Shown piece after piece: positions 1,989 to 5,954 of a DNA stretch of 5,954 bases. Source of the DNA: a virus. How positions within the stretch are numbered: the first letter of the stretch is position 1; each line of letters starts with the position of its first letter. The notes beneath the pieces were generated by a model. The model worked only from the letters and a program-made list of their open reading frames with translations, made no database searches and was not told where the DNA came from. Location of the stretch: positions 1-5,954 of IMG/VR virus record IMGVR_UViG_3300045988_015384, one strand, 5' to 3'. The position numbers were made by a program, and so were the translations under genes.

Positions 1989-2397
1989 TCTTCATGTTTC
2001 CTTCCTTCGGTGTTTCCTTCGGTGTTTCCTTCGGTGTTTCCTTCGGTGTTTCCTTCTGGATTTCTTGCAGTGCCAGCGCGTTTGCCTGTGCTGTTGCGAT
2101 CATGCGGTGGTATTCGTGGATGTTCTGCGGCCATTCCGTAACGTCTACCTCTGTGCCGTCCAACGCTCCCTGTGAAAGGCTCTGCATAAACTGCGGGTCA
2201 AACGACGCTTTGCGGACAATGTTTTTAATATCGCATTCATCCGCATAGCTTTCGATTTCGCCCTGGATGTCGATGCTTTCAGTTTCCTGCAGATACTCTT
2301 TGCCCTCTTTGTCCTTTGCCCAGATATATTGCTTGCGCTGTTTTTCGCCTGATTCAGAAAAGAAGGGCTTTCGCCCTTCTTCATACCTCTTATTCAT
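1975..2397 (-). CDS. VP3: Internal scaffolding protein VP3, 140 aa from ATG 2397, with a C-terminal (KETP)4 repeat.
   Basis: ATG 2397-2395 is preceded by GGGAGGG 8 nt upstream and overlaps the stop of the upstream gene (ATGAATAA). The ADECDIKNIVRKAS and DVTEWPQNIHEY segments resemble the ECDIN.I and D.TE.P motifs I recall for gokushovirus VP3. The longer track ORF (to 2457) starts at TTG with only a weak GGCAGAG upstream. Confidence 0.75.
   Translation of the reverse strand: MNKRYEEGRKPFFSESGEKQRKQYIWAKDKEGKEYLQETESIDIQGEIESYADECDIKNIVRKASFDPQFMQSLSQGALDGTEVDVTEWPQNIHEYHRMIATAQANALALQEIQKETPKETPKETPKETPKEGNMKNEQE
1996..2056. repeat. Tandem repeat: four exact 12-nt units (ccttcggtgttt at 2004-2015, 2016-2027, 2028-2039, 2040-2051) plus partial flanking copies.
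   Basis: Read directly from the sequence. On the coding strand each unit is AAACACCGAAGG, coding KETP in the VP3 frame. Confidence 0.95.
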
Positions 2398-3708: not shown

Positions 3709-3734
3709 TTTTGTGGCCCCCTTTCTTTGATTAT

Positions 3735-3788
3735 ATTATAGCATTTTTTTGGGCAAAAGTCAATGTTTTTTAGCTTTTTTTAGTTTTT
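3735..3788 (-). promoter_or_regulatory. Near-consensus sigma70/sigmaA-type promoter: -35 TTGACT (3763-3758), 17-nt spacer, extended -10 TGCTATAAT (3743-3735), and phased A-tracts upstream that act as an UP-element-like region (3771-3766, 3781-3775, 3788-3784).
   Basis: The minus strand reads CCAAAAACTAAAAAAAGCTAAAAAACATTGACTTTTGCCCAAAAAAATGCTATAATATAATCAAAGAAAGGGGGCCACAAAAATG. The -35 is 5/6, the -10 is 6/6, the TG is at the extended -10 position, and spacing was counted as 17. Confidence 0.75.
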
Positions 3789-3789
3789 G

Positions 3790-3828
3790 GTCTGCGTCCG
3801 GTCGTGGCGACCGGCGAATAGAGCAGAC
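3790..3828. other. GC-rich nested hairpin: outer stem gtctgc/gcagac (3790-3795 / 3823-3828), inner 7-bp stem ccggtcg/cgaccgg (3798-3804 / 3808-3814) with a 3-nt loop.
   Basis: I checked the reverse complements by eye. An alternative partner ccggacgg at 3848-3855 could pair with gcgtccgg at 3795-3802 (7 of 8). Confidence 0.7.
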
Positions 3829-3867
3829 GTAACTTTTCCGTTTGATTCCGGACGGCCTTTATTTTGC

Positions 3868-4031
3868 TTTTCAACATTTTCCACAGACTTTTCAACATTT
3901 TCACATTGTTAAACTTTAGCACAACAAATTGTTTTAACAATTCAACATTTTTTCAACAAGTCTTTCAACGGTTGTTTTTACTGTTTTCTAACGTTCTTAT
4001 GTTCAAAATTATCTGTTTTCAACATTTCCAC
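3868..4031 (+). repeat. Iteron array: TTCAAC cores at 3870, 3891, 3941, 3952, 3964 and 4018. Three long copies read TTTTCAACATTT(T)(C)CAC(A/G) at 3868-3885, 3889-3905 and 4016-4031.
   Basis: Read directly. There are six copies of one hexamer in about 160 nt, with spacings of 21, 50, 11, 12 and 54 nt. TTTTCCACA at 3877-3885 fits the DnaA-box consensus TTWTNCACA. Confidence 0.8.
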
Positions 4032-4070
4032 GTACTCTACTACTACGGCTACAACAAGTTAATATAATAA

Positions 4071-4116
4071 TACGCGTGCGCGTGTGCGCGCGTCTACGCG
4101 TGCGCGTGTGCGCGCG
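4071..4116. repeat. Two exact direct copies of the 22-nt TACGCGTGCGCGTGTGCGCGCG (4071-4092 and 4095-4116) separated by TC. Each copy is a perfect alternating pyrimidine-purine tract.
   Basis: Read directly and checked position by position for Y-R alternation. The region is dense in CpG inside an AT-rich intergenic region and contains ACGCGT and GCGCGC palindromes. Confidence 0.95.
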
Positions 4117-4120
4117 AATA

Positions 4121-4152
4121 AGGCCAGTACCTTACTTGATAGGTACTGGCCT
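4121..4152 (-). other. Perfect 12-bp inverted repeat hairpin (AGGCCAGTACCT / AGGTACTGGCCT) with an 8-nt loop (plus-strand TACTTGAT), 12 nt downstream of the VP4 stop. Candidate terminator and/or replication-origin structure.
   Basis: The reverse complement was checked and is perfect. On the coding strand the stem is followed only by TATT and then a CG tract, so the U-tract is poor for a classical intrinsic terminator. Confidence 0.6.
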
Positions 4153-4164
4153 AGGTGACACTAA

Positions 4165-5184: not shown

Positions 5185-5954
5185 CTTAAATAATCACCCG
5201 GCTTTCTTTGTTGTCCGTAACTTCCTGTTTTGTCTTGCATGGTTACTGCGTTCTTTTTTGCACCACCAAAGTTTTGTGCGGTTATGCCTCCGTGCTCGTT
5301 TTTTCCGGATGTTCTGTTACCTGTGTTTACACCTTCTTCGATTGCATTTCCTGCTTTTTCTCCGATTTCGGATAGTGCTTTTTGCAATCCTAGTGGTGTC
5401 ATGTTTGTACTGCTTAACATCTGGTTCCAGCTTTGTGCGGCGTTGTACCAATCACTTTGTGACCAACTTTCACTGCTGTACGAGTTTGGCACAAATCCGC
5501 TTGCTCTGCTTACTCCCAGCGCGCTTGACGATGGTGCGCCCATGCTTGCGCCTGAAATCGTTCCTGCGCTACCTCCCGGCGTGCTTGCACCGCCGTTCTG
5601 GAATGCCAATATAGGATTAAGGCCTGCTTTTTTCATGTCCTCAACTGCCCTCTGATAGGCTGTATTTGACATGTGTTCTTGCCATTCTCGATTTTTCATG
5701 GCTTCTGTGCTGTTGAAATTCATTGCTGTTGCGTTTTCGATGTGGTTATATACGCCCTGCATGATTGCTCCCAATGTGTTATAGCCCATCTGTTCCAGCA
5801 TTGATTTCTGGTTAAATTGACTTTGTCTCTGTCCTTCTGCGTTCTGATATTGGTATGCTCCTTTTAGATACTGCATTACCTGTTCGTCATTCGTTCCGGA
5901 CTTGCTCATGCTTTGGCTTTGTCCACCGCCTTGCTGTGTACTTCCGCCTTGACT
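5181..5954 (-). CDS. VP2: 3' portion of the VP2 DNA pilot protein gene. The frame is open to the window end, and the true start is ATG 264-262 after circular wrap.
   Basis: The block NREWQEHMSNTAYQRAVEDMKKAGLNPILAF is the conserved microvirus VP2 core. The frame stays open upstream of the internal ATG at 5909 (…SQGGSTQQGGGQSQS-M), which has no SD. Confidence 0.88.
   Translation of the reverse strand, partial: SQGGSTQQGGGQSQSMSKSGTNDEQVMQYLKGAYQYQNAEGQRQSQFNQKSMLEQMGYNTLGAIMQGVYNHIENATAMNFNSTEAMKNREWQEHMSNTAYQRAVEDMKKAGLNPILAFQNGGASTPGGSAGTISGASMGAPSSSALGVSRASGFVPNSYSSESWSQSDWYNAAQSWNQMLSSTNMTPLGLQKALSEIGEKAGNAIEEGVNTGNRTSGKNEHGGITAQNFGGAKKNAVTMQDKTGSYGQQRKPGDYLR
5814..5954. repeat. Terminal direct repeat, right copy (identical to 1-141).
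   Basis: Exact match to 1-141. Confidence 0.95.

Follow-up and report, generated by a model that had tools for sequence, protein, structure and literature searches.

The closest described counterpart of the element treated here is the basal unwinding system (BUS) of bacterial oriC, which in the incC/oriC2 region of B. subtilis comprises DnaA boxes 6 and 7, the DnaA-trios, and an AT-rich region (Richardson 2016/2019; Pelliciari 2021). Converted from the 3'-to-5' notation of Table S1, that of B. subtilis reads TTATCCACA / AATCCACA / GGCC / CTA CTA TTA CTT CTA CTA / TTTTTTATA (Pelliciari 2021). The published rules allow one DnaA box at most two mismatches to TTATCCACA and the second, tandem box at most four; the spacer from the better box to the first trio is at most 16 nt, with a peak at 10-13, and the gap averages 4 bp; at least three consecutive trios follow, with a central A and the consensus 3'-GAT-5'. 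Orientation of the proximal boxes towards the trios is essential in B. subtilis, the distal boxes of which are reported to be helically phased, and oriC2 of C. difficile is reported with 5'-CACCTACTACTATTACTACTATGA-3'. The element that we compare with this system is a conserved module of about 200 nt in a gokushovirus (IMG/VR virus record IMGVR_UViG_3300045988_015384). The window, by which we mean the whole stretch of 5954 nt analyzed, is a circular genome of about 5813 nt, positions 1-141 being identical to 5814-5954 (a terminal overlap of 141 nt).

Microviruses are among the most abundant gut phages, and their hosts, replication origins, and modes of persistence are largely unknown. The model of their replication, a Rep-driven rolling circle that does without DnaA, is borrowed from phiX174, which makes no use of that protein. 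DnaA boxes are well known as helper sites in plasmid and P1-type origins. What appears to be new here is the layout of a chromosomal unwinding module, with a phage-specific extension, on a rolling-circle phage with a single-stranded DNA (ssDNA) genome. In the literature searched, no paper joined gokushoviruses with DnaA or Microviridae with "DnaA box", and the titles and abstracts of papers on Microviridae and oriC, on the DnaA-trio and bacteriophage, and on the intergenic origin of Gokushovirinae name no phage-borne DnaA-trio module.

Layout of the module

The module lies in the non-coding gap between the stop codon of VP4 and the start of orf60 (3709-4164). At 456 nt this gap makes up 7.8% of the 5813-nt genome, as a first-pass annotation of the DNA had estimated (about 8%). 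The same annotation had drawn attention to six TTCAAC cores as an iteron array, and all six are present on the plus strand, at 3870, 3891, 3941, 3952, 3964, and 4018, with spacings of 21, 50, 11, 12, and 54 nt; the whole window has 11 copies of TTCAAC against 4.1 expected. The array proves to be the distal part of the module, the features of which are, in order:

3868-3970, plus strand: distal same-orientation DnaA-box-type 9-mers, housing TTCAAC copies 1-5
3868, plus strand: distal box TTTTCAACA
3877, plus strand: distal box TTTTCCACA
3889, plus strand: distal box TTTTCAACA
3897, plus strand: distal box ATTTTCACA
3915, plus strand: weak distal box TTTAGCACA
3939, plus strand: distal box AATTCAACA
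3950, plus strand: distal box TTTTCAACA
3962, plus strand: distal box CTTTCAACG
3989-4010, plus strand: conserved linker TAACGTTCTTATGTTCAAAATT between the distal boxes and the core (consensus aCGtt.taa.Gttaaaa, at -45 to -27 in the modules)
4016-4024 and 4024-4032, plus strand: tandem proximal boxes TTTTCAACA and ATTTCCACG, which hold TTCAAC copy 6 and point at the trios
4033-4036, plus strand: gap TACT, 4 nt, from the proximal box to the first trio
4037-4045, plus strand: three DnaA-trios, CTA CTA CTA (3'-GAT-5' three times on the complementary, gene-sense strand)
4046-4061, plus strand: phage-specific invariant extension C GG CTACAACAAGTTA, written CGGCTACAACAAGTTA (gene-sense strand TAACTTGTTGTAG)
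4059-4072, plus strand: pure A/T stretch TTAATATAATAATA, 14 nt, the presumed DNA unwinding element

Written out, 4016-4072 of the window is TTTTCAAC / ATTTCCACG / TACT / CTA CTA CTA / CGG CTACAACAAG / TTAATATAATAATA, and the phage consensus is TTTTCAAC / TTTTCCACA / TnCn / CTACTACTAC. The complement of the invariant end is ...GTAGTAGTAG, in which TAG triplets, or 3'-GAT-5', come directly after the DnaA boxes. The run of CTA triplets and the A/T stretch right after the last box, which were absent from the first-pass annotation, explain the box array.

The proximal boxes share one orientation, their starts are 8 nt apart, and they have two (TTTTCAACA at 4016) and three (ATTTCCACG at 4024) mismatches to TTATCCACA; the second box is TTTTCCACA in most relatives, with a single mismatch. 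Both face the trios, with the 5'-TTATCCACA-3' sense on the CTA strand. A spacer of 12 nt (4025-4036) leads to the first trio, the gap is 4 nt, the CTA triplets at 4037-4045 correspond to GAT three times, and 14 nt of pure A/T follow at 4059-4072. In sequence, then, the module agrees with every rule of the BUS, and it is built like a DnaA-dependent unwinding module of double-stranded DNA. It is found between VP4 and orf60 of a microvirus and not in a dnaA-dnaN region, and is therefore a BUS-like module on a phage rather than a chromosomal origin.

For the clustering of boxes we used TTWTNCACA with at most one mismatch, a literature definition applied to C. difficile oriC and not derived from the window. 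Seven such boxes lie on one strand inside 170 nt; none of 2000 shuffles of the whole genome reached seven (mean maximum 2.2, largest 5). The matches to this consensus that had been pointed out earlier hold: TTTTCCACA at 3877-3885 fits exactly, ATTTTCACA at 3897-3905 has one mismatch, and ATTTCCACG at 4024-4032 has two. The starts of the distal boxes are phased at 10.5 bp (Rayleigh R 0.72 vs 0.25-0.48 at neighboring periods, a descriptive value since the sequences are related), which matches the phasing reported for the distal boxes of B. subtilis. We think it likely that each TTCAAC repeat is the core of a site for host DnaA, that these sites form a one-directional array and make up the upstream half of a BUS copy carried by the phage, and that the module as a whole probably is a DnaA-box/DnaA-trio unwinding element that acts on duplex DNA.

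Conservation and the match to bacterial origins

From exactly position 3868 onward, the intergenic block matches at least 56 GenBank phage records, among them gokushoviruses whose coding DNA is only about 66-70% identical while the non-coding block is 70-80% identical. An alignment of the intergenic regions of related microviruses had been proposed as a check on the array, and the array is conserved in the relatives, both in 17 from GenBank and in the 115 modules described below. The 17 share repeated YTTTCAACA units, two TTTTCCACA boxes, and a nearly invariant 3' end, CTACTACTACnnCTACAACAAGTTA(A)TATAAT. In these relatives, which were retrieved by BLAST and so are independent of the scan pattern used below, CTACTACTAC is unchanged but for one substitution.

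A collection of viral sequences was scanned with the core pattern TYMACWTTTYMACNNNNNCTACTACTA, consisting of the tandem box cores, the gap, and three trios. The pattern was found in at least 120 contigs, and 115 of the matches listed are microviruses; their modules all differ in sequence, and more than a dozen samples are represented. That all 115 have the same CTACTACTA run follows from the search pattern, which required it. The modules have a median of five box-type 9-mers in the forward and none in the reverse direction; 105 of them have a box at -87 (position 3950 of the window), and the strict box pattern finds the proximal boxes, at -21 and -13, in 78 and 79. Some relatives have two AACGTT palindromes in the linker. 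The number of trios is three in 65 of the modules and five in 47, and the A/T fraction at +22 to +36 is 0.92, against 0.85 in bacterial origins. The phage-specific CTACAACAAG occurs in 101 of the 115 modules vs 0 of 120 bacterial origins, and every non-coding occurrence examined in microviruses has boxes and trios directly upstream. As a free-standing unit the block was rejected, its other matches being chance ones inside coding sequence. The module is not coding: a hidden open reading frame (ORF) lies on the plus strand (3864-4067), over the conserved block, but a frame of any kind stays open in only 7 of the 115. An Rfam search of the module gave nothing relevant at E <=1.

These data bear on whether the module is a chance low-complexity repeat, or else a piece of host oriC captured recently and without function. 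The region is T-rich, and when its own composition is kept, by shuffling the intergenic region alone, 7 of 2000 shuffles do reach the observed seven boxes. However, conservation is position by position over at least 115 genomes with diverged genes, the phage-specific extension is in none of the 120 bacterial origins listed, resemblance to those origins is confined to 31-62 nt, and a second lineage (below) carries the module independently. The conservation data largely refute this explanation, which we consider hardly credible; recent capture of a host oriC was discarded on account of the short similarity and of the absence of the phage block from the listed origins.

Gene orientation does not constrain the module either. 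It runs opposite to the genes in 110 of the 115 genomes, so that the trio strand is the gene-sense strand there, and in the same direction in 5. Three of the 17 GenBank relatives (KX513864, MG945388, and KT264800) likewise have the block turned round with respect to the genes, and the close relatives L141, L214, and L239 show a true inversion of a module of about 230 nt. To see whether its orientation sets which strand is packaged, third-codon-position skews were compared; two flipped genomes fall inside the range spanned by 54 standard genomes. Strand asymmetry is strong in the window, with 37% A and 18% T on the gene-sense strand; in VP1 the third codon positions have A > T (skew -0.28 here, mean of the relatives -0.35) and C > G. 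The packaged strand of phiX174 is T-rich.

The first-pass annotation had considered, among other possibilities, a hairpin in ssDNA at which DnaA loads a primosome. On this account, the packaged strand folds, presents a DnaA box, and loads the primosome in the manner of an A-site. An ssDNA phage does need an origin for its complementary strand, and the trio strand is the gene-sense, presumably packaged, strand in 110 of 115 genomes. Folding compared with shuffles, however, gave z of -0.72 and -0.78 for the two strands, that is, no excess structure. Reverse boxes are essentially absent, with a median of zero per module, so that no box can turn duplex in ssDNA, and no stable hairpin holding a duplex box was found. 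The sole local hairpin is not conserved: the inverted repeat AATTGTT-TT-AACAATT (3927-3942) is indeed present, but its supposed role as a functional center was rejected, since in only 13 of the 115 modules does that stretch contain a hairpin-type repeat of at least 6 bp. Finally, the module is flipped in the 5 of 115 genomes and 3 of 17 relatives noted above. An A-site is thus very improbable. The earlier suggestion of DnaA stands in that the 9-mers are of the DnaA-box type, in one orientation, and part of a full unwinding layout; the mechanisms proposed with it are not supported.

The same core pattern was searched in bacteria and archaea, one genome per species, and was found at no fewer than 120 loci, our own estimate for chance being only a few. 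By tblastn with one Clostridial DnaA and one DnaN query, DnaA and/or DnaN was found in 103 of the 120 listed loci, usually in the order dnaA, 100-450 nt, motif, 30-600 nt, dnaN; 17 had neither gene, the match in several of them being close to the end of the locus. Since the pattern is flanked by dnaA and dnaN, the sequence marks the chromosomal origin in bacteria. Box orientation is as in the window in all 120 listed matches and in B. subtilis. The TCAAC flavor of box appears in the core position in Ruminococcus (L040, L121), Oscillospiraceae (L069, L093, L105, L112, L134), "Eubacteriales" (L088, L096), Ruthenibacterium, Lachnospiraceae, and Selenomonas, and the origins of the first three groups have TTTTCAACA-type boxes there; in R. 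albus the boxes are listed as TTTTCAACA GGT TTTTCAACA (Table S1, Pelliciari 2021). Among the origins listed, the best match to the core of the window is that of Ruminococcus sp. L040, at 29 of 31 nt. The shared box flavor, this match, and the strong GGAGG-type ribosome-binding sites of the window point to a gut Clostridial host for the phage.

A second version of the module is found in two 4.7-kb microviruses (L229 and L232) in which VP1 is 34% and VP4 28-30% identical to that of the window. They have 4-5 perfect TTATCCACA boxes, then TTTCCACATTTCCACA, ATGC, (CTA)5-6, and an A/T-rich stretch; the CTACAACAAGTTA block is missing. In the oriented loci the module spans about 4118-4290 in L229 and 3244-3420 in L232 (anchors 4248 and 3374); it follows VP4 immediately and precedes a TTGAC(T)-type promoter, which is the same genomic position as in the window. 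Here the layout recurs independently, in a Rep background that has diverged far. Five viral contigs of 16-69 kb that are not microviruses (L175, L199, L248, L249, and L256) also have tandem boxes, CTA trios, and an A/T-rich stretch, and one of them (L199) has four TTTTCAAC repeats upstream; no dnaA or dnaN was detected near the match in any of the five. These contigs may represent further phages or phage-plasmids that carry origin-like modules, or else bacterial DNA binned by mistake.

The repeats might instead be iterons bound by a phage protein (VP4, the VP5-like protein, or the orf60 product), their likeness to DnaA boxes being a coincidence; binding by VP4 or orf60 had been put forward at first. 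The direct repeats do adjoin a Rep gene, the invariant block is phage-specific, and the small VP5-like protein belongs to a PHROG annotated "DNA binding protein". Yet the same core marks the chromosomal origins of many bacteria, which have no such phage proteins, and a search for domains and families found no recognizable domain in orf60. Moreover, the lineage with the 28-30%-identical VP4 has perfect consensus DnaA boxes (TTATCCACA) in the same layout, a textbook version that neither phage-protein iterons nor coincidence can readily explain. We judge this explanation quite unlikely. Because the core is shared with origins and the diverged lineage uses TTATCCACA, "iteron" in the plasmid sense is the wrong label: the repeats of an iteron-type origin are bound by the replicon's own initiator and differ from the sites of the host initiator, and these are of the DnaA-box type common to bacterial origins.

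Genomic setting and proposed use of the module

All genes of the window are on the minus strand. In GenBank it comes closest, at about 82-85% identity, to gut Microviridae and Gokushovirinae sampled from humans, pigs, and monkeys. The remaining features are:

1988-303, minus strand: VP1
5909-5181, minus strand: VP2
5184-4165, minus strand: VP4, the Rep protein (PF23343)
3708-3526, minus strand: orf60, no family assigned
3497-3105, minus strand: peptidase M15
minus strand, further genes: VP5-like protein and Chp2-type scaffold protein
3735-3763, minus strand: strong sigma-70-type promoter TTGACT-17-TATAAT (11/12, with TG), which drives orf60 and downstream genes
4121-4152, minus strand: perfect 12-bp hairpin shortly after the stop codon of VP4 (ORF end 4165), a likely terminator
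4071-4116: alternating CG/TG tract with two exact 24-nt copies of TACGCGTGCGCGTGTGCGCGCG; G+C-rich, alternating purine-pyrimidine, Z-DNA-prone

The CG/TG tract borders the A/T stretch, varies in length among relatives, and keeps to the VP4 side where the module is inverted; it may be a G+C clamp or an absorber of supercoiling. Two further readings were tried and dropped. The conserved TATAAT, taken as part of a promoter, has no usable -35 at 16-18 nt, and its sole match in a promoter scan is weak (9/12), with the -35 hexamer inside the variable CG/TG tract. For AAGTTAATATAATAATACGCG as a dif/XerCD site, comparison by eye with dif of E. coli gave a poor match. Elsewhere in the window (2002-2056, minus-strand coding), shortly before the start of VP1, the scaffold-like ORF contains a perfect 12-nt tandem repeat, TTCCTTCGGTGT x4.6, which gives its product a repeating unit of four residues close to the C terminus.

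A dense array of boxes in one direction could also serve as a sink or sensor of DnaA, as the datA locus does, or DnaA could act there as a transcription factor of phage genes, in either case without origin function; host initiation would be perturbed or phage expression timed. DnaA is a known transcription factor, and clusters of its boxes are known to titrate it. Such roles do not need precise tandem boxes, trios, or an A/T stretch, and yet these are the most conserved parts. Furthermore, the nearest promoter, that of orf60, is about 100 nt from the nearest box, and the module is found in either orientation relative to the promoter. We therefore regard a sink or transcriptional role as unlikely.

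If the module is an unwinding element, host DnaA-ATP would occupy the boxes on the double-stranded replicative form, and from the proximal pair a DnaA filament would be directed to the trio strand and would melt the adjoining A/T stretch. The opened DNA could be used in two ways, one or both of which may apply. One is loading of the host helicase, as at oriC, by which the replicative form would be copied like a plasmid and at times set by DnaA; TnnT repeats opposite the trios match the pattern of the DnaD recognition element. Alternatively, the invariant block CTACAACAAGTTA would be exposed as a single strand for VP4, resulting in a hybrid of chromosomal and rolling-circle initiation; the block at 4046-4061 is a candidate recognition or nick site of VP4.

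Several points weigh against this view. The need for a DnaA module is not obvious in a rolling-circle phage. The ATTTCCACG proximal box is degenerate in the window, its three trios are the published minimum without interruption, and 12-13 non-trio bases separate them from the A/T stretch. The TTTTCAACA flavor is a putative DnaA box, counted as one by its sequence. The core pattern was taken from the phage sequence, with scan counts that are lower bounds, and the statistics of conservation and phasing were drawn from related sequences. That the module is a functional DnaA-dependent origin, or an opener that assists Rep, in gut gokushoviruses and at least one other microvirus lineage is accordingly a tentative proposal, to which we give somewhat less than even chances.

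The conserved module suggests dependence on the host initiator and hence a possible coupling to the host cell cycle. Were this so, the replicative form would fire like a mini-chromosome under host cell-cycle control and persist like a plasmid without integration, or DnaA would open the duplex so that VP4 can cut the invariant site. Integration-independent episomal persistence of gokushoviruses has been reported (PMC7062461), and DnaA-timed copying of the replicative form would be a concrete mechanism that fits it. The flavor of the boxes would then be an indicator of host clade for uncultured microviruses, with TTTTCAACA-type boxes pointing to Ruminococcaceae/Oscillospiraceae-like Clostridia and the TTATCCACA boxes of the other lineage elsewhere, and the DnaA-trio concept would extend beyond chromosomes.

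Comparison with known systems

Rolling-circle origins offer a short resemblance. The (+) origin of phiX174, CAACTTG/ATATTAATAAC, lies inside gene A and has no DnaA requirement; the pC194-type nick site is CTTG/ATA. The gene-sense strand of the phage module has TAACTTG/TTGTAG beside an A/T-rich run, and VP4 is in the same Rep family (PF23343). However, the A/T run is on the other side of the putative nick. In the A-site of plasmid R6K, which Masai and Arai are said to have described, an ssDNA hairpin with a DnaA box reportedly assembles the ABC primosome. The phage module shares with it DnaA boxes in a replicon that passes through a single-stranded stage, but an A-site depends on a stable hairpin in which the box is double-stranded, whereas the module is without such structure and its boxes point one way.

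Auxiliary DnaA boxes also occur in the theta origins of plasmids and phages (pSC101, F, RK2 oriV, R6K, and P1 oriR), likewise mobile replicons that recruit host DnaA through consensus-like boxes, which there too adjoin an A/T-rich unwinding element and the replicon's own initiator gene. In these, opening is by Rep-bound iterons; the phage, a rolling-circle ssDNA replicon, has trios, with no separate set of iterons seen. According to a 2024 review, published data give no indication that DnaA binds the single-stranded unwinding element of plasmids.

The BUS differs from the phage module in several respects. The module is on a 5.8-kb ssDNA genome beside a Rep gene and not between dnaA and dnaN, it has three uninterrupted trios followed by the CTACAACAAGTTA block that the listed bacterial origins do not have (0/120), its gap in the phage clade, TACT, is not G+C-rich, unlike that of most bacterial examples, and an alternating CG/TG tract flanks it. 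The two agree in their tandem boxes of one orientation with an 8-nt offset, the 4-nt gap, the 3'-GAT-5' trios on the opposite strand with TnnT repeats across from them that fit the DnaD recognition element, the A/T region downstream, and the phased distal boxes.

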